Shown piece by piece: positions 38,672 through 62,958 of a DNA stretch of 64,000 nt. The stretch is from NCBI RefSeq assembly GCF_030684315.1, contig NC_081365.1, positions 32,081,394 through 32,145,393 on the forward strand, written 5' to 3'. A program made the position numbers and the translations under genes. Position 1 is the stretch's first letter. The number at the start of each line of letters is the position of its first letter. The notes under the pieces are model-generated. The model saw only the letters and a list, made by a program, of their open reading frames with translations, made no database searches and was not told where the DNA came from. The DNA is from Stegostoma tigrinum. Lineage: Eukaryota.

Positions 38672-41200
38672 GTAATCCCACAATTTAAAAATGGAGGTAG
38701 GGAGAAAACAGGGAATTATAGACTGGTTAGCCTGACATCAATCATGGGAAAAATGATAGAACATAGAACATAGAACACTACAGCGCAATACACGCTCTCC
38801 AGCCCTCGATGTTGTGCCGACTTGTGAAACCAATCTGAAGCCCATCTAACCTACACTATTCCATTATCATCCATATGTTTATCCAATGACCATTTAAATG
38901 CACTTAAAGTTGGCGAGTCTACTACTGTTGCTGGCAGGGCATTCCACGCCCTTACCACACCTCTCTGAGTAAAGAACCTGCCTCTGACATCTCTCCTATA
39001 TTTATCACCCCTCAATTTAAAGCTATGCCCCCTCATGTTAGCCATCTCCATCCGAGGAAAAAAGCTCACACTGCCCACCCTATCTAATCCTCTGATCATC
39101 TTGTATGTCTCTATTAGGTCACCTCTTAACCTTCTTCTCTCTAACAAAAGCAGCCTCAAGTCCCTCAGCCTTTCCTCATAAGATCTTCCCTCCATACCAG
39201 GCAACATCCTGGTAAATCTCCTCTGCACCCGTTCCAATGCTTCCACATCCTTCCTATAATGCAGCGACCAGAACTGTACACAATTCTCCAAGTACAGTCG
39301 CACCAGAGTTTTGTACAGCTGCAACATGACCTCATGGCTCAGAAACTCAATCCCTCTACCAATAAAACCCAACACACCGAGTGCCTTCTTAACAACCCTA
39401 CCAACCTGGGTGGCAACTTTCAGGGATCTATGCACATGAACGCCGAGAACTCTCTGCTCATCCACACTACCAAGAATCTTACCATTAGCCCAGTACTCTG
39501 TATTCTGTTACTCCTTCCAAAGTGAATCACCTCACACATTTCTGCATTAAACTCCATTTGCCACCTCTTAGCCCATCTCTGCAGTTTATCTAAATCCCTC
39601 TATAATCTGCAACATCCTTCTGCACTATCCACAATTCCACCGACTTTAGAGTCATCTGCAAATTTACTAACCCATCCTTCTACGCCCTCATCCAGGTCAT
39701 TTATAAAAATGACAAACAGCAGTGCCGCAAAACAGATCTTTGCGGTACACCACTAGAAACTGAACTCCAGGATGAACATTTCCCATTAACCACCACCTTC
39801 CGTCTTCTTCCAACTAGCCAATTTTAGATCCAAACTGCCAAATCACCCTCAATCCCATGCCTTCGTATTTTATACAATAGCCAATAGGATCCATTATAAA
39901 AGATTTAATAGTAGGCCGCTTGAAAAACAGTGACAGGATTGGACAGAGTGAACACGGACTTCGTAAGAGAAATCATGTTTGCCAAAACTGCTAGAATTTT
40001 GAAGGATGTAACTAATAGAGTCGATAAGAGGGAGCCAGTGGATGTTCTTTTACTTGGACTTTCAGATTTCCAATAAGGCCCCACACAAGGGATTAGTATG
40101 TAAAATTAAAGCAAATGGGATTGGGGGCAGTGTAACATGGACAGAGAACTGACTGGCAGACAGGAAACAAAGAATAGGAATAAATGGGTCTTTTCCCAGT
40201 TCACAACCAGTGTCTAGTGAAATACTACAGGGATCAGTGCTTGGGCCCCAGCTACTCATGATATCTATTAATGATTTAGATGGATGAACTAACCATAATA
40301 TCTTCAAGTTTGCATATGACACAAAGCTGAATGGGAGGGTGAACTATGAAGAGGATACAGAAATGCTTCAGTATGATTTGGACAAGCTGATTGGGCAAAT
40401 CCATGGCAAATGAAGTGTCACATTGATTATGTGAAATTAATAATTTAAAAAGTGTGTCAAATACAGGAAGGCAGAATATTGTCTGAACGGTGAGGGTTTG
40501 GGAAAAGGGTAGGTGGGATGAGACCTGGGTGTCATTGCATACCAGTTACTGAAGGTAAGCATGCAAGGGCAGCAGGTGTTGAAGAAGGTGAATGGTATGT
40601 TGGCGTTGAGGGGAGGGATGACATACTGAAGTTGTACAGGGGCTTGATGAGTCTACAGCTGGGTGCAGTTTTGGGTCTCCTTATCTGAGGAAGGATGTTC
40701 TGGCTATGGAGGGAGTGCAATAAAAAGTTTACCAGACTAATTCATGGGATGACAGGACTGACATATGAAAAAAGTTTGGATCAGTAAGGTCCATATTCAT
40801 TGGTTTAGAAGAATGAGGGGCGATCTCATATAAAATTCTAACAGGATTAGGCAGGGTGAATGCAGGAAGACTGTTCCCAATGATTAGGGAGTCAAGAACC
40901 CATAGGTCAGGGTTTAACAATGTGAGGTAGGTCATTTAGGTCTGAGATAAAGAGAAAGTTCTTCATAGAGACAGTGGTGAACCTGTGAAATTCTTCTGTC
41001 ACAGATAGCAGCTGATGTCAGAATGTTGAATGTTTTCAAGAAGGAATTAGATACAGTTCTTAGAGCTCAATGGATCAAAGGGTATGGGGTGAAAATTGGA
41101 ACAGGGCACCCGATTGAATGATCATCCATGATTTTAATTAAAGATGAAGCAGACTGGAATAGCTACATGGCCTACTCCTGCTCCAAAGTTTCTGTGTTCC
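38672..41200 (+). mobile_element. CR1 ORF2 3' half plus 3' UTR, split by a nested antisense CR1
   Basis: GNYRLVSLTSIMGK before the insert resumes as SIIKD...QSEHG...DFQ...QGSVLGP...KFAxDTKL after 39884. Confidence 0.85.
38758..39883 (-). mobile_element. Young 5'-truncated CR1 nested in CR1
   Basis: 204-aa ORF 38851-39465 (LYKTLVR...CVQFWS...VQRRFTRMLPG...WNALP) is the CR1 ORF2 C-terminus; (TTCTATG)n tail at 38758-38775. Confidence 0.92.
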
Positions 41201-44755: not shown

Positions 44756-44819
44756 ATGACAGCTCTGGGGACCCGAGTATTCAAACTTTGTGTTCTGCTT
44801 CATTTTTTTCATCTTGCAG
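44756..44819 (+). CDS. Signal-peptide exon of the VJ-C1 IgSF receptor (MTALGTRVFKLCVLLHFFHLA)
   Basis: Hydrophobic 21-codon leader; phase-1 donor GCAG|GTATGA; joins the V exon in frame (G+TG = Val, then WSKKLTVFQ); acceptor ttcag at 44740. Confidence 0.72.
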
Positions 44820-46304
44820 GTATGAATAATTCAGGTCTAACATCATTAATGAGTAACTGCAGTCACAATGAATTGCAGAAGGAGGAAAGAAATGATAGAA
44901 ATATTTTCTGACAAACAGAAATATTCCTTACTTGAACTTTACAAATCATTGGTTATAATACTATTTGTTTTAGTCACAAAGTAATTTTGAAAATGCACCC
45001 AAAACTTCCACAGCATTCCCATCAATATTTCTTTCCTTCTTATGCTGAATGCATAAAGCCTTCTCAAAATCTTACTCTTTGGCTATGCCTTAGCCATGAA
45101 GCTTAATTCTCATTAAAATACTTGCTTCTCTTTATTTCAATCAAGTGCTTTGGGGTTTCTTATTGTATTGTGAAAGCGATAAGGGGAGGGCAGCCAGAAG
45201 AAACTGCAAAGTAAAGCATAAAACAATGAAAACAGCCAGCTTAGAACAAGGAAACAGACAAGTTAATTAACATATTGGTGCTGGAATGTCTAAATGAGTT
45301 AGGATATGGCAGCACAGTTCAATTATGTGGAATGCCTACCCTTTTTGGGAACGGTGGATGCTTCATGTGGCCTAGATGATCAAGAAATATCTTCAGCTGC
45401 GAAATTTCAAACTCTTGCTTTTGGAACTTGAACAGCAGCAAGAGTCACAATGGTGCATCAGTAAAGCTGAGAGCTATGTGGATAGCACTATCAATAAAGA
45501 GGTCACATAGTTAATTAAGACTAGACAATGAAAGGTAACTGCTGGTCAGTCTAGAAAGAACAAGTAGGTAGTGCAGGAATCCCCAAAATCTATCTCGTTC
45601 ACGAACCCCTTTTGTAAAGCAGTGAGGACAATGGTTCATCTGAGGAATGTAATGAGAGCCAAGCTTTTGTCACAGCAAATGGCTCAGCTGCACTGAGGGT
45701 AGGGTGGAAGAGTGGGCAGGTGGTTCAATGGTTCACGGAACAGACAGGCATTTCTGAGGTCTTATGTGACTTCCGATTAGCATGTTGCCTCGATGATCCA
45801 GGCTTGAGGTTCTCACAGTGTGGCTGCAAGACATTCTTTTGGGGAGATGAACAGCCAGACGTCGTGATAGTTTTGGCATCAGTGGCCACAGTAGAAAGAG
45901 AGATGAAGTCCTGATAGTAAAATTTAGGAAGCCCAGCATATGGCTGAAAAGCAGGACCACAAAGGCAGTAATCTGTAAGTATACAAAAAGTGTGACAATA
46001 GTTCATAATACGTTATTGTTTGGGAATTTGGATTTCAAGGTAGAAGTTAATGTGCATTTTTTCAGTTTTGGGAAATTAAGGTCAGAAAATCGTTTTGAAC
46101 TGTGAGTTCAAACATTATTTCCAAGAAAGCCTGAGACTTAAGCAAAATGACAAGATATTTGTGCAGTTAATTGTTGAAATGTTTATAAAGTTGTACTTTT
46201 AGGACATATGGAATGTCAGAACAGGGTCACAATCACAATGAGAGCTGTGGAGGAAGATTGCCTGTACATGATAATTTTCTGAAGAAATATGTTGAGGGCA
46301 CTAG

Positions 46305-48096
46305 AGATAATGGGAACTGCAGATGCTGGAGAATCCGAGATAACAAAGTGTGGAGCTGGATGAACACAGCAGGCCAAGCAGCATCTCAGGAGCACAAAAG
46401 CTGATGTTTCAGGCCTAGACCCTTCATCAGAAAAGGGGGAGGGGGAGATGGTTCTGAAATAAATAAGGGGAGAGGGGGAGGCAGATCGAAGTTGGATAGA
46501 GGAGAAGATAGGTGGAGAGGAGACAGACAAGTTAAAGGGGTAGGGATGGAGCCAGTAGAGGTGAGTATAGTGGGGAATTTGGGAAGGGATAGGTCAGTCC
46601 GGGGAGGATGGACTGGTCAAGGGGGGCGGGATGAGGTCAATAGGTAGGGAATGGAGGTGCGGCTTGAGATAGGAGAAGGGGATGGGTGAGAGGAAGAACA
46701 GGATAGGGAGGCGGGGACGAGCTGGGCTGGTTGTGGGATGTGGTAGGGGGAGGGTAGATTTTGAAGCTTGGGGTCTGGGATGGGGGTGAGGGAGGAGTTA
46801 TGGAGGCAAGTATAGCACTTCCTTCGGTTGCAGGGGAAAGTGCCGGGTGTGTTGGGGTTCGAGGGGAGTGTGGAATGGACAAGGGAGTCACAGAGACAGT
46901 GGTCTCTCTGGAAAGCAGACAAGGGTGGGGGTGGGAAAATGTCTTTGGAGGTGGGGTCGGACCGCAACTTCCTCCCCGGCAGTGTTGAGAACGCCCTTGA
47001 CCATGTCTCCCGCATTTCCCGCAACTCATCCCTCACACCCCGTCCCCACAATAACCACCAAAAGAGAATCCCCCTCGTCCTCACATACCACCCCACCAAC
47101 CTCTGGATACAACGCATCATCCTCTGACGCTTCCGCCATCTGCAGTCTGACTCCACCACCAAAGACATTTTTCCATCCCCACCCTTGTCTGCCTTCCGGA
47201 GACACACTCTCTCCGTGACTCCCTTGTCCGCTCCACACTGCCCTCCAACCCCTCCACACCCGGCACCTTCCCCTGCAACTGCAGGAAGTGCTACACTTGC
47301 CCCCACACCTCCTCCCTCACCCCCATCCCAGGCCCCAAGAAGACTTCCCACATCAAGCAGATGTTCACCTTCACATCTGCTAATGCGGTATACTGCATCC
47401 ATTGAACCCGGTGTGGCTCCTTCTACATCAGGGAAACCACGCGGAGGCTTGGGGATCGCTTTGCAGAACACCTACGCTCGGTTCGCAATAAACAACTGCA
47501 CCTCCCAGTCGCGAACCACTTCAACTCCCCCTCCCATTCCTCAGACAACATGTCCATCATGGGCCTCCTGCAGTGCCACAACAATGCCGCCCGAAAGTTG
47601 CAGGAACAGCACCTCATATTCTGCTTGGGAACCCTGCAGCCCATTGGTATCAATGTGGATTTCACAATCTTCAAAACCTCCCCTCCCCCCACTGTATCCC
47701 AAAACTAGCCCAGCTCGTCCCTGCCTCCCTAACCTGTCCTTCCTCTCACCTATCCCCTCCTCCCACCCCAAGCCACACCTCCATTCCCTATCTACTAACC
47801 TCATCCCGCCCCCTTGACCTGTCCGTCCTCCCCGGACTGACCTATCCCCTCCCTCCCTCCCCACCTACACTCACATCTACTGGCTCCATCCCCACCCCTT
47901 TAACTTGTCTGCCTCCTCTCCACCTATCTCCTCCCCTATCCGTCTTTGATCCGCTCCCCCCCCTTCCCTATTTATTCCAGAACCCTCTCCCCATCCCCCT
48001 CTCTGATGAAGGGTCTAGGCCCGAAGAGTCAGCTTTTGTGTTCCTGAGATGCTGCTTGGCCTGCTGTGTTCATCCAGCTCCACACTTTGTTACCTC
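46305..48096. mobile_element. Penelope-like retroelement with inverted structure (- arm 46305-~46960, + arm ~46961-48096), GIY-YIG endonuclease remnant
   Basis: RIPLVLTYHPTNL and VYCIH...YIRET.RRLGDRFAEHLRS motifs; terminal repeats at both ends; 15-bp TSD TGTTGAGGGCACTAG at 46290-46304 and 48097-48111. Confidence 0.92.
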
Positions 48097-48681
48097 TGTT
48101 GAGGGCACTAGCTATTTTACATTTAATAGTATGGAGTGAGAAATGGCTAATTGATAATTCTGTGTAATACAAACTTTAATATTTACCAAATAAATTTGAA
48201 AATGTTGTATTTCAATCTGAAACTAAGATCTTAAATGATAACAGGGGCAATTATAAAGGCCGAGGAGAAAACTTGCTGCGGTGGATCAAAAATACATTAT
48301 AAGGTTTGACAGTACATGAAACATTGGCTATTATTTAAAGAACCAAAACATTCACTGTGAAAATATATTCATTATAAGATAAAAATACCCAAAAGGAAAA
48401 TCAGAAGAGTCATGGCTAACACAGGAAATTAAAGAAAATATCAGATCGAAGAAGAAGGCTTATAGCGTTGCCAAAATATATGTAAGCCTGAGAATTGGTA
48501 GAATTTCAGAAAGAATAGGATATGAATGTAAGATAGCAAGAAACATTAAGACAGACATTAATAGCTTTTATCAAGAAGAGAAAAGTAAATGATTAGCAAA
48601 GGACAAATGTGGTTCAAATGCAGGCAAACACAAGCAAATTAATAATAGGAAATGTAGAAATGGCAGAAAAACTGAATGAGT

Positions 48682-49496
48682 GATAATGGGAACTGCAGAT
48701 GCTGGAGAATCCAAGATAATAAAATGTGAGGCTGGATGAACACAGCAGGCCCAGCAGCATCTCAGGAGCACAAAAGCTGATGTTTCGGGCCTAGACCCTT
48801 CATCAGAGACAGGGATGGGGTGAGGGTTCTGGAATAAATAGGGAGAGAGGGGGAGGCAGACGGAAGATGGAGAGAAAAGAAGATAGGTGGAGAGGAGAGT
48901 ATAGGTGGGGAGGTAGGGAGGGGATAGGTCAGTCCAGGGAAGACGGACAGGTCAAGGAGGTGGGATGAGGTTAGTAGGTAGGAGATGGAGGTGCGGCTTG
49001 GGGTGGGAGGAAGGGATGGGTGAGAGAAAGAACAGGTTAGGGAGGCAGAGACAGGTTGCACTGGTTTTGGGATGCAGTGGGTGGAGGGGAAGAGCTGGGC
49101 TGGTTGTGTGGTGCAGTGGGGGGAGGGGACGAACTGGGCTTGTTTTGGGATGCTGTGGGGGAAGGGGAGATTTTGAAACTGGTGAAGTCCACATTGATAC
49201 CATTGGGCTGCAGGGTTCCCAAGCGGAATATAAGTTGCTGTTCCTGCAACCTTCGGGTGGCATCATTGTGGCACTGCAGGAGGCCCATGATGGACATGTT
49301 ATCTAAAGAATGGGAGGGGGAGTGGAAATGGTTTGCGACTGGGAGGTGCAGTTGTTTATTACAAACCGAGCGGAGGTGTTCTGCAAAGCGGTCCCCAAGC
49401 CTCCGCTTGGTTTCCCCAATGTAGAGGAAGCTACACCGGGTACAATGGATGCAGTATACCACATTGGCAGATGTGCAGGTGAACCTCTGCTTAATA
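48682..49496 (-). mobile_element. 5'-truncated Penelope-like element (GIY-YIG domain plus terminal repeat)
   Basis: ORF 49037-49462 VYCIHCTRCSFLYIGETKRRLGDRFAEH...EQQLIFRLGTLQPNGIN is the PLE GIY-YIG endonuclease. Confidence 0.92.
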
Positions 49497-50149
49497 TGAA
49501 TGGGTATTTTATGCCCTTCTTCACAATAGAAGACACAAGAAGACTTTTGTCAGTTAATCCAAGAGTCTAGTGAGAATGTGGAACTGAAAGAAATTATTAT
49601 TAGTGAAAATATCAGATTGGAAAAATTAACAGGATGGCAAGTTGACACATCCCTGGGGCCTGCTGACCTTCACTCTCTAGTGTCAAAAATGATGACTACA
49701 CAGGTATTGGATGCCTTAGTGATGATCTTTCAAAATTCTAATAATTAGGCAATGATACCTGCAGGTCAGAAGGTTACACATGTTACGAGTCATAGAGTCC
49801 GAGACTTGTACAGCTCAGTAACAGAACCTTCAGTCCTTTAGGAAAGGAGGGATCAATAAAACAACAAATGAACGATTTACTAGCCTGGTTTTAATAATCA
49901 GGAAAATGTTGGAATCTACTTTAAAGAATATGATTATTGGGTATTTAGAAAATAATTGTTCTGATTTGATTAAGTCAACTTGAATTTATGAAAGGATGCC
50001 ACGTTTGATGAACCTGATAGATTTTTCGGAGGATGTTACTTACTTAAGGGTTGATAAGGGGGAACCAGTGGATATGTCACATTTAGACTTTCAGGTTTTT
50101 TTTATAAACTCCAACACAAGAGGTTAGTAAACAATATTAAAGTGCATGG

Positions 50150-50678
50150 TTGCAGGAACAGCAACTCATATTCCGCCTGGGAACCCTGCAGCCATATGGT
50201 ATCAATGTGGACTTCACCAGTTTCAAAATCTCCCCTTCCCCCACTGCATCCCTAAACCAGCCCAGTTCATCCCCTCCCCCCACTGCACCACACAACCAGC
50301 CCAGCTCTTCCCCCCCACCCACTGCATCCCAAAACCAGTCCAACCTGTCTCTGCCTCCCTAACCGGTTCTTCCTCTCACCCATCCCTTCCTCCCACCCCA
50401 AGCCGCACCCCCAGCTACCTACTAACCTCATCCCACCTCCTTGACCTGTCCGTCTTCCCTGGACTGACCTATCCCCTCCCTACCTCCCGACCTACACCCT
50501 CTCCACCTATCTTCTTTACTCTCCATCTTCGGTCCGCCTCCCCCTCTCTCCCTATTTATTCCAGTTCCCTCCCCCCATCCCCCTCTATGATGAAGGGTCT
50601 AGGCCCAAAACGTCAGCTTTTGTGCTCCTGGGATGCTGCTTGGCCTGCTGTGTTCATCCAGCCTCACATTTTATTATC
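50150..50678 (+). mobile_element. 5'-truncated Penelope-like element
   Basis: EQQLIFRLGTLQPYGINVDF C-terminus and terminal repeat; 13-bp TSD TTAAAGTGCATGG at 50137-50149 and 50679-50691. Confidence 0.9.
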
Positions 50679-51590
50679 TTAAAGTGCATGGGATTGGGAT
50701 AAAATGTTCGCATGGATTGTGGAATGGTGGCCAGCTAGAAAGAAGGGAATAGGAATAATTGAGTCATTCTGCGGTTGGCCAGTGGGGTACCACAAGGATC
50801 ACTGCTTGGACCCAAGCTGTTCACAACCTATATCAATGATTCAAATATAGGGCCAATTGTAATATTTTCATTTTAGCAGGTGATGTAAACTTGATGACAA
50901 TGTGAGTTATAAGGAGAATGCAAAGGAACACCAATGGCATTTAGTCACATTATTTGAATGGACAACAATATGACAGATAAGGGATAATGTGGTTATTTGA
51001 GAGGTTACCCACTTTAGTACCAGGAACAAAGGTGCAGAGTATTTCTTAAATGGTAAGAGAGTGCAAAGTTTTGATGGGATCTTAGTGCCCTTGTTCATGA
51101 GTCACTGAAAGTTAACATGCAGGTGCAGCAAGTAAATGTGGCTATGAGGAGAGGTTGGAAAAACTTGGGTTGTTCTCATTGGAATGATGGAGGTTGAGGA
51201 GAAGCTTGATAGAGGCCTACAAGATTATGAAGGGCATGGACAGAGTGGACAGTTAGAAGCTTTTTCCCAAGTTGGAAGAATCAGTTACTCGGGGTTATAG
51301 ATTTAAGGTACGAGGAGCAAGGTTAAAGGAGATGTATGAGGCAAGTTTTTTACAGAGGATGGTGGGTGCCTGGAACTCACTGCTGGAGGAGGGAGTGGAA
51401 GCAGATATGATAGTGACTTTTAAAGGACATCTTGACAAATAGATGAATAAGATGGTAATAGAGGAATGCGTTCCCCGGAAGGGTAGGGGGTTTTAGTTGT
51501 GATGGGCAACATGTCGATGCAGGCTTAGAGGACTAAAGGGCCTGTTCCTGTGCTACAATTTTCTTTGTTCTTTGTTATGTTAGAAACATA

Positions 51591-54324: not shown

Positions 54325-55735
54325 CACTATTTAAATGGAGACAGATGGCAGAAAGCTTCGGCACAGAGGGATTTGAGAGTACTTGTCCATGAATCACATA
54401 AATATTCAGCAGGTAACATAGAAGGAAATGGAATATTAATCTTAATTTTCAAAGCAATAAAGCATGCAAATGGAGAGCATTTGCAATAAATATCCAAGGT
54501 ACTAGTTAAGCCCACGAGGAATACTATTAATAATTTGGCACCCTCTTATCTAACGAAAGATATACTGACATTGGAGGTAGCTTAAAGAAAGTTCATTATG
54601 TTGTTATCTGGTATGGAAGGATTGTATTATGAGGAGATACTCAGCAAATTGATCTTGTACTCATTGGAGCTTAGAAGAATGAGATGTGACCTTATTGAAA
54701 TACACAAGTTTCTTAGGGACTAACAGAGTAGATGCAGAGAGATTTTTACAACTTGTGGGAGAATTTAGGACCAGAGCACATAATAAGGGGATACCCAATT
54801 GAGACAGAAATTAATAGAAATGTCTTCTCTCAGAGTGTAGTGAAACTGTGGAACTTTTTGCACCAGAGGGCTGTCAAGGCTGGGTCATTAAATATATTTG
54901 AAGTGAGACAGATAGATTTTTAATCAATAAGGTGATCAAGTGTTGTGGTTAGAAGAGGGGAAGCAGAGTTGAGGATTATCATATTAGTCTTGGTCTCATT
55001 GTATGGCTGAGCAGGCCAAATGGGCTGAATAGCCTACTACTGTCCCTATGTCTAATGCTCTTATGGTAAATTGTCTAGGTTACTGGTGAGACTGTACTTG
55101 GAGTGTTGTGTACTGTTCAGGTGCCTTTGCTTAAGGGAGTTATGTAGAGGGCATTCGATAGAGATTCACCAGCCTGTTAGCAAGGAAGGTGGGTCAATCA
55201 TATGAGGAAAGATAGAGGAAATTGGGCCTGTATTTTCTGGAGTTTATAAGAAAGATTTTATGAAATTACTAACTTCTTATAGGGACAGACAGAGTGGATG
55301 CTTCCGTTGGCTGTGTGGTCTCACTGTGGGGACAAGCCATTTAGGACTGAGATGAGGAGGAATTTCTTCACTTGGAGGGTGATATTCTCCAGCTGAGAGG
55401 GCACAAAAGTAAGTTCAAGAGAGACTTTGATAGATTTCTAGTTACCAATGATGTTAAAGATGTGGGCAGATTGTGAGGTATTAAGGAAGATGATTAACCA
55501 TGATCTAGAATAGCAGAGCAGGCTTGAGGGGCTGAATGGCTTACTCCTGCTACTATGTTTCAATGCAATCTACAATATATCCAATTCCATTTACTTCTTT
55601 TCAGGAAAAGAGATTCATAATGTCTTTATATTGACTCAATTCACTGAACTACAAACTACACCCAGCTACATGATTCATTCAGTACTGGTCAGAAATAATA
55701 TATTGTTAATCATTTTTGTTTTTTAATTTCTTCAG

Positions 55736-56095
55736 TGTGGAGCAAAAAACTAACAGTATTCCAAACACCATCAGAGATCAGAGCACTGAAGCGGGACAAC
55801 GTACAAATAAATTGTTCATACAGTGACACAGTTGAACAGTTCCGGATTATGTGGAAGCGTAACACCAGTACACAATTATTCTGCTATCACATGGAAAATA
55901 AATTTAATTTTTCTTCTATCACGCATTGCACAGAACGTGCTAACATTACGGTGGACTCCTCAGCAAAATCCTCATCTTTAATAATCCACAATCTTCATTT
56001 AAGTGATGCTGACACTTACTTCTGTCAGGTTGATTTTGAAATTCCTCCTCCTTCACAATCAGCAAGAGGTAAAGGTACACGCATTACAGTGGAAG
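55736..56095 (+). CDS. Ig V-set exon with germline-joined J-like G strand; CD28/CTLA4/CD28H/NKp30-like
   Basis: Pyrimidine-rich acceptor ttcag| and donor GAAG|GTGAGT, both phase 1; INC...IMW...DADTYFC...RGKGTRITVE; extra Cys pair (LFC, THC); EIPPP loop. Confidence 0.93.
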
Positions 56096-60245: not shown

Positions 60246-60551
60246 CTCAGCCAACTGTCCAGTTAATTGAAAGGACTCAGCCTTACCCTAATGAATGGAG
60301 AGAGTTAATCTGCACATCACTGGAGTTCTATCCTGATGACATTCAAGTGTCCTGGTTTAAAGATGGACAGCGAATCACCAATGGCGTTAAGAATGGGACT
60401 CTCTATACTAACAGTGATGGCTCATTCTCCATCACAAGTGCCCTGAATCTTTCTGCACTTGAGCAGAATGAAACTGGAATATATTACTGTCAAGTGAACC
60501 ACTCAACTCTTTCTGCACCCACCACTAAAAGGATTCCTGTTTGTAACCAAG
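60246..60551 (+). CDS. Ig C1-set exon
   Basis: Acceptor ttttcag| and donor CAAG|GTGAAA, both phase 1; AQPTVQL...LICTSLEFYPDDIQVSWFKDG...NSDGSFSITSAL...YYCQVNHSTL...IPVCNQ has the C1 hallmarks (FYP, NxDGxF, YxCxVxH). Confidence 0.95.
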
Positions 60552-60679
60552 GTGAAAGACAGTCCATTCATTGGATTTGTTAGCAAAATCTCTGGATTCT
60601 GCAAACTGGCAGAAGTTTAAGTTGCAATTCTAATTTTCTTTTGACTGTTATGATTTGAGTAACGTTATTGCATGAATGT

Positions 60680-62853: not shown

Positions 62854-62958
62854 GTTCTGCCAGCAACAGAGGATTGTGGATATTACCAACAGTTAGTGGC
62901 TTAATTGCGTTGATGGTGTGTGTGGTTATTGCAATATTTTGCACATGTACAATTTCAA
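62854..62958 (+). CDS. Transmembrane exon (GSASNRGLWILPTVSGLIALMVCVVIAIFCTCTIS)
   Basis: Acceptor tctcaacag| and donor TCAA|GTAAGT, both phase 1; in frame with the C1 exon; uncharged hydrophobic stretch of about 23 aa. Confidence 0.85.

Follow-up and report, generated by a model that had tools for sequence, protein, structure and literature searches.

A candidate inhibitory receptor of VJ-C1 architecture, with a CD28H-type FG loop, encoded beside a putative HHLA2 gene in the shark Stegostoma tigrinum

Introduction

The CD28 family has been defined as a set of single-V receptors, built as one IgV domain followed by transmembrane and intracellular segments (IgV-TM-IC), in a survey whose available portions count only single-V genes and state that the family's origin is left unrevealed (Quiniou et al. 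2024, PMC11599192). As given in those portions, EIPPP is the chondrichthyan form of the CD28H motif, occurring in shark CD28H (TMIGD2), CD28HL1 and CD28HL2; shark CD28H is listed with a YVNV motif, and CD28HL3 has an ITIM (PMC11599192). The PPP of CTLA-4, CD28 and ICOS is flanked by aromatic residues, and in the complexes of CTLA-4 and ICOS the PPP loop contributes 55-71% of the interface, according to the accessible sections of a second source (PMC7545189).

Human HHLA2, a B7-type protein of V-C-V layout encoded at 3q13, binds CD28H through its first IgV domain, and KIR3DL3 serves as its ITIM receptor (PMC10173190, as far as its text is accessible). In human 3q13, BBX and CIP2A lie in one domain together with HHLA2, and the BBX-HHLA2 interval contains CD47 (PMC8254995, accessible text). 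Other genes join a V domain that needs no rearrangement to C1 domains; among these, UrIg and UrIg2 are described, in the parts of the reports at hand, as having at least three C1 domains and as mapping to the MHC or to an antigen-receptor complex (PMC12227049, PMC10751288). Here we describe a shark gene in which a V domain with the CD28H-type loop is coupled to a C1 domain and an ITIM-bearing tail, and which lies next to a B7-type gene.

Results

The window analysed here is a stretch of 64,000 nucleotides from contig C14 of the S. tigrinum genome (G000), and positions given without a contig name refer to it. It carries all but the last exon of a plus-strand gene, hereafter gene A, organized as leader-VJ-C1-TM-ITIM. 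The exons, located by tblastn with shark homologues, number five, with canonical splice sites, phase 1 introns throughout and an open frame of 319 amino acids. Exon 1 (44756..44819) encodes the signal peptide as a split leader ending in phase 1 at a GT donor, and matches the whale-shark model P0001 at 81% in tblastn. The interval 55736..56095 is exactly one exon, preceded by AG and followed by GT, and encodes a germline-joined, VJ-type V-set domain; its frame from 55738 reads ...TQLFCYHMENKFNFSSITHC...YFCQVDFEIPPPSQSARGKGTRITVE, and the domain ends in YFCQVDFEIPPPSQSARGKGTRITVE. Pfam recognizes it both as V-set (E 2.5e-13) and as the ICOS V-set_2 (E 1.8e-9). Within it lie a C-strand arginine on the front face (Q-x-R, 55843..55845), an extra cysteine pair spaced C-x14-C (55882..55929; codons 55882-55884 and 55927-55929), the EIPPP motif of the FG, or CDR3-equivalent, loop (56038..56052), which the family alignment and the published shark motif mark as CD28H type, and a J-like GxG motif on the G strand (56068..56076), also placed by the family alignment. 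No exact CACAGTG or CACTGTG recombination heptamer occurs within this exon. Exon 3 (60246..60551) encodes a C1-set domain (Pfam E 1.1e-18) and exon 4 (62854..62958), placed by tblastn and splice sites, an uncharged transmembrane segment; the cytoplasmic exon 5 falls just past the window edge (G000:C14:32146584-32146713), and the tail ends there in VVYSLL, a consensus ITIM.

Contigs of 797-1613 bases from three of four runs of a relative (three studies, presumed to be RNA) align with 55733-56095 and end where the splice donor lies; leader-exon positions are covered at the same three depths, which fits a spliced transcript. The closest database protein is from the whale shark, with 93% identity over the V domain. 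At 60543-60583, the C1 exon closes with a stalk cysteine common to whale shark and absent from most gene A orthologues, and the C1 frame runs on into the intron up to a stop; P0001 ends in the same manner, possibly reflecting a secreted form or an annotation error.

Three other identities were considered for gene A and rejected. A rearranged TCR or Ig light chain is ruled out by the single germline exon, the TM-ITIM tail and the absence of an exact heptamer from that exon; a pseudogene by the open frame; and an orthologue of the named CD28H or CD28X by the location of the matching motifs, which sit at two other loci (L007 and L006, respectively). Separately, high-copy repeats with the look of retroelement fragments occur at 46200-50700 (intron 1) and at 38851-39507 upstream, and resemble Penelope-like and CR1-like elements. 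The stretch from gene A to the B7-type gene described below contains an RT-RNase H fragment (L010:2552-2875).

Conservation was assessed in an alignment of 36 family V domains, comprising 11 of the window gene's type (A-type), 9 of its sister's (B-type) and 16 others. The rows represent one sequence per species or paralogue out of 199 proteins, plus three G000 exons, with isoforms, truncated models and a duplicate of the G000 paralogue B left out; they were collected with profiles built on the family itself, and this biases the set towards the motif. The PPP is kept in 35 of these 36 domains, the exception being conger eel (MYPPD), and the extra cysteine pair is likewise kept in 35, being lost in the chimaera orthologue. 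Such retention, in the face of a mean identity of only 59% for A-type V domains of different species, argues for conservation beyond chance, and the persistence among orthologues on which the original prediction depended is borne out. IPPP is nearly invariant (32/36) amid variable flanking residues. The full EIPPP occurs in all 11 A-type and eight of nine B-type domains and in none of the 16 others; GxG is found in 10/11, 7/9 and 1/16, respectively; and the C-strand arginine, present in 11/11 A-type and 6/9 B-type domains, is not among the commonest residues in the remaining 16. In the bony-vertebrate members the C-strand Trp and GxG are gone, as is the conserved arginine. A tail motif of the form Y-S/T-x-L/V/I is carried by 12 of 15 database relatives outside the A and B groups.

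The family extends through sharks, rays, chimaera, sturgeon, bowfin, gar, eel, loach, carp, catfish, lungfish, a caecilian and sea turtles, its members being named automatically as SIRP-like, Ig-light-chain-like or uncharacterised. Nine outgroup V domains lack the cysteine pair without exception, while five of them contain PPP, which implies that PPP is a trait of the wider CD28 group and specifies no ligand. The V tree does not settle how the family relates to CD28H, and an AU test, with 13 rows left out, neither rejected nor established family monophyly (p 0.38).

Gene A was originally proposed to carry a MYPPPY-like FG loop and a CD28-like second disulfide, in a proposal that did not take in its C1 domain, ITIM tail, paralogues and HHLA2 neighbour. 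The underlying description, an EIPPP loop and two extra cysteines spaced C-x14-C, is correct, and when paralogue B is aligned with human CD28 the PPP falls in register with MYPPPY; the C-strand arginine also lines up, as does the first of the two extra cysteines. The likeness to MYPPPY ends there, however: the loop is EIPPP, of CD28H type, and an aromatic residue stands beside the PPP at -2, -1 and +1 in only 2, 2 and 0 of the 36 family domains. The likeness of the disulfide is also partial, in that the second extra cysteine of CD28 lies 19 residues on (C-x19-C), as against 14-15 in the family, about five residues earlier, and the pair is lost in chimaera. Strand assignments in two AlphaFold models do not show the separation of the cysteines that would have undermined the proposal. 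In the model of the window V domain (pLDDT 90.4), C49 belongs to strand 47-54 and C64 is the last residue of strand 59-64, and that of the white-shark orthologue has the same register; in this cross-strand arrangement on a hairpin the two residues could form the predicted C'-C'' disulfide. Fold searches were non-discriminating, giving generic V-set and Fab matches, with TCR V domains (Z 16-17) and CD28 (Z 14.9) close to a tie as structural neighbours, and a mixed V profile searched against the PDB returned antibodies and multi-Ig proteins only.

Two paralogues of gene A, B and C, lie upstream on C14. Paralogue B (G000:C14:31978098-32000281, L020-L022), a VJ-C1 gene on the minus strand and hence opposite to gene A, has a V domain 51% identical to that of gene A, a transmembrane arginine and no conserved ITIM. 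The arginine is found in all seven B-type models with a recognisable transmembrane segment and in one of nine A-type models (white shark); one database model of paralogue B skips the transmembrane exon that bears it (L021:479-634). Paralogue C (G000:C14:32041870-32047489, L015) carries YVNV and IYENTF in its tail and has no B-strand cysteine, yet retains the extra cysteine pair and IPPP; the first V tree places it among bony-vertebrate members (92/87), and the C1 tree puts it with those of lungfish and tetrapods. Bamboo shark has three locus tags near one another (chiPu_0002799, 2801 and 2802) which suggest that the same trio is present there. In the trees, the V domains of A and B cluster by paralogue and their C1 domains by species, the C1 exons (60246-60551 and L021:7828-8151 in S. 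tigrinum) being 77-98% identical within species and 72% between, a pattern that argues for repeated gene conversion of these exons in shark or ray lineages.

Downstream of gene A, on the same strand, lies a B7-type gene of V1-C-V2 layout, whose V1 exon starts 25.9 kb after the last exon of gene A. In the stretches scanned for transmembrane exons, none was located for this gene or for the C33 gene described below. Its best PDB matches among those listed are B7-H3 and B7-H4, and no HHLA2 structure is among the matches listed. The basking-shark orthologue of this neighbour (P0022) retrieves HHLA2-named Atlas clusters at ranks 1, 3 and 5, with a VTCN1-like cluster at rank 2 and a VTCN1-like name at NCBI. 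CIP2A and BBX match on C14 only, where they flank the receptor cluster and the B7 gene together; IFT57, another neighbour of HHLA2 in human, matches on C2 (G000:C2:106779485-106805161) and departs from this synteny. From the IgV1-IgC-IgV2 ectodomain, the Atlas names and the BBX/CIP2A synteny, we identify the neighbour as a putative HHLA2 gene; its linkage to the receptor genes is established in one genome. No CD47 match appeared between BBX and HHLA2 or elsewhere in G000, in a search that gave no match for its controls either; the receptor trio fills the interval occupied in human by CD47 and IFT57.

A VJ-C1 gene near a B7-type gene is not peculiar to this locus. Two further VJ-C1 loci were found by similarity, a V match in the Ig cluster of C55 falling outside the set. 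The first (G000:C33:16873331-16916326, L044-L046) holds a VJ-C1 gene with APPP and GKG motifs, 38 kb from a B7-type V exon; the second (G000:C14:38970923-39044345, L040-L042) holds a VJ-C1-TM gene with KPRP and GNG, 68 kb from a B7-type V-C gene. In both cases the best PDB matches of the B7-type gene are again B7-H3 and B7-H4. Thus each of the three VJ-C1 loci examined has a B7-type V exon no more than 70 kb away, as opposed to none of four single-V loci (L004-L007). A search with the V1 domain of HHLA2 yields 55 B7/butyrophilin-type matches in G000, so that by simple arithmetic at most about 0.24% of the genome lies within 70 kb of one. The recurrent layout may nonetheless come from duplication of one ancestral cassette rather than from binding. 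As to relatives of these loci, an axolotl protein of V-C1-V-C1 layout (P0068) resembles the C33 gene in the C1 tree, on long branches, and the second C14 gene has relatives in a ray and a caecilian (P0137, P0145). One of the single-V loci (L005, G000:C58:6492335-6492676) consists of one VJ exon whose motifs are an ERPIP loop and GNG, outside the motif table of the CD28 family and 0.8 Mb from a B7-type V exon.

Discussion

Gene A resembles a CD28-family checkpoint receptor and yet lies outside the family as it is currently drawn. It has the CDR3 motif (EIPPP) and a cytoplasmic tyrosine motif (VVYSLL), but an in-frame C1 exon stands between V and TM, as it does in the V-C1 database orthologues, and the gene lies outside the synteny blocks of the nine named CD28-family members, being flanked by BBX, HHLA2 and CIP2A. 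None of these three is among the synteny markers in the available portions of the 2024 survey and its supplements, nor do six accessions or motifs of the VJ-C1 family appear in the available supplements (PMC11599192).

The nearest likeness is to CD28H/TMIGD2, CD28HL1-3 and CD28X, with which gene A shares, in sharks, the YxC-x-EIPPP FG loop and GxG as well as a tail with tyrosine motifs, and the YVNV listed for shark CD28H recurs in paralogue C (PMC11599192, available portions). Members of that group are single-V genes at other synteny blocks, however, in contrast to the V-C1 layout of gene A and its position between BBX and CIP2A, and the shark single-V genes at L004, L006 and L007 are without its extra cysteine pair. 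The loop of gene A is therefore a known motif on an architecture that the survey excluded, as judged from sequence. CD28, CTLA-4 and ICOS share with gene A the register of PPP, the first extra cysteine, the C-strand arginine (in CD28) and the Pfam match to the ICOS V-set; they differ in their aromatic-flanked PPP (MYPPPY, FDPPPF), C-x19-C spacing and locus, and gene A differs from them further in its added C1 domain and ITIM tail.

By its one germline VJ exon with GxG, followed by a C1-set domain, gene A is on the other hand a VJ-C1 gene, and it shares the single-exon VJ, the C1 domain and the split leader with UrIg, UrIg2, PRARP and the Xenopus VJC1 genes. Its one C1 domain, ITIM, PPP loop and different locus set it apart from UrIg and UrIg2 as these are described in the accessible text, and it may overlap with PRARP or the Xenopus VJC1 genes. 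KIR3DL3, of three-domain architecture, is unrelated to gene A; the likeness lies in the proposed role as an ITIM receptor for HHLA2, a functional analogy only.

These features are best reconciled, in our opinion, with an inhibitory receptor for a ligand of the B7 family, which gene A probably encodes. That this ligand is HHLA2 specifically, the product of the gene 26 kb downstream, is an attractive proposition to which we would give somewhat less than an even chance. We infer the following course of events from motifs, synteny and established CD28/B7 biology. On another cell, a B7-type V domain would be contacted at its front face by the FG loop and C-strand arginine of the gene A V domain, and the VVYSLL motif of gene A, once phosphorylated, would recruit SHP-1/2, thereby damping lymphocyte activation. 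Paralogue B, by virtue of its transmembrane arginine, may work with an ITAM adaptor, and paralogue C, with its YVNV tail, may signal through Grb2; the two would then be activating counterparts that compete with gene A for the same or a related ligand.

Linkage requires some caution as a guide to binding. Human CD28 maps to 2q33 and CD80/86 to 3q13, with CD28H at 19p13, and since the known human CD28-family receptors are unlinked to their B7 ligands, the linkage seen here may reflect only shared descent from an ancestral block of Ig genes. In that event gene A might be an inhibitory CD28-like receptor for some other B7-family ligand (B7-H3/B7-H4-like, ICOSL-like or CD80/86-like), its proximity to HHLA2 being historical. 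The PPP, the cysteine pair and the alignment with CD28 would serve this reading equally; the 55 B7/butyrophilin-type V matches supply candidate ligands in number, and the CD28H-motif gene elsewhere in G000 (L007; a CD28X-motif gene is at L006) could itself be the alternative receptor for HHLA2. We nevertheless consider this reading unlikely: HHLA2 is tightly linked to gene A, the loop is of CD28H type and human CD28H binds HHLA2, and gene A lacks the aromatic flanks seen in receptors that bind CD80/86 and ICOSL.

A paired receptor of the SIRP kind, directed at a non-B7 ligand, whether a marker of self or a protein of microbial origin, and retaining PPP and the extra disulfide as structural inheritance, seems to us similarly doubtful. 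SIRPs have a V-C1-C1 ectodomain, the activating form bearing a transmembrane Lys. Gene A and its relatives are like SIRP alpha and beta in their VJ-like V domain with C1, in the pairing of an ITIM form with one that has a transmembrane arginine, and in their automatic annotation, databases and the Atlas alike naming relatives SIRP-like; gene conversion of C1 is typical of paired receptors, the A-type V domains diverge fast, and CD47 lies within the human BBX-HHLA2 interval. Against these likenesses stand the one C1 exon between V and TM in gene A, in place of the two that SIRPs carry, together with its one ITIM and PPP loop and, in the activating form, Arg rather than Lys. Moreover, a PPP held almost without exception amid drifting surroundings fits a fixed self ligand better than pursuit of a pathogen.

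More improbable still is a dimer resembling an invariant antigen receptor, in which near-identical C1 domains and GxG strands hold the A and B chains together and the two FG loops form one site. Its attractions are the similarity of the A and B C1 exons within species, the Fab and TCR chains among the fold matches, the stalk cysteine of the window gene, and the fact that UrIg2 (E 6e-51), a homodimer, is what the family profile matches best among PDB sequences. But GxG is absent from 15 of the 16 members outside A and B, most orthologues lack the stalk cysteine, and inverted neighbours can undergo conversion free of functional constraint. Finally, gene A is laid out as V-C1-TM and has a B7 gene for a neighbour, which might suggest a B7-type ligand akin to B7-H6 or ICOS-L that was duplicated next to HHLA2; a ligand role for gene A itself is largely excluded and highly improbable, in that its V exon is outside the 55 matches to HHLA2 V1, the PDB matches of the domain are TCR V, ICOS and CD28, and its tail carries an ITIM.

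Returning to the inhibitory receptor for a B7-type ligand, we can extend this preferred reading to a broader proposal that, as a whole, strikes us as a long shot. The locus may represent the original HHLA2 checkpoint module of jawed vertebrates, wherein VJ-C1 receptors of inhibitory, adaptor-coupled and co-stimulatory kinds are encoded in tight linkage with the ligand gene, as one of at least three linked VJ-C1 and B7 cassettes; the single-domain CD28 family would then have been derived by loss of C1, and KIR3DL3 would be a late mammalian replacement.

The EIPPP motif is already known in sharks; what is new is its setting, namely a trio of paralogues, a VJ-C1 architecture and adjacency to HHLA2. 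No account of the VJ-C1 family or of its linkage to HHLA2 was found in the literature searched, which mostly excludes subscription journals. HHLA2 is a cancer checkpoint target, and to our knowledge the family of KIR3DL3 is absent from non-mammals. For HHLA2 in sharks the locus supplies a candidate for the brake receptor, whose relatives occur in chimaera, sturgeon, gar, teleosts, lungfish, caecilian and turtles. Taken on the strength of motifs and gene order, gene A likely encodes a brake receptor of ancient standing whose ligand is of B7 type and most plausibly HHLA2. The coupling of a CD28H-type V domain to a C1 domain of antigen-receptor type, beside B7 genes at three loci, bears on how the CD28 family arose as well as on the ancestry of VJ-C1 receptors. 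Were the cassette origin true, CD28-type co-stimulation would be connected with the precursor of antigen receptors.
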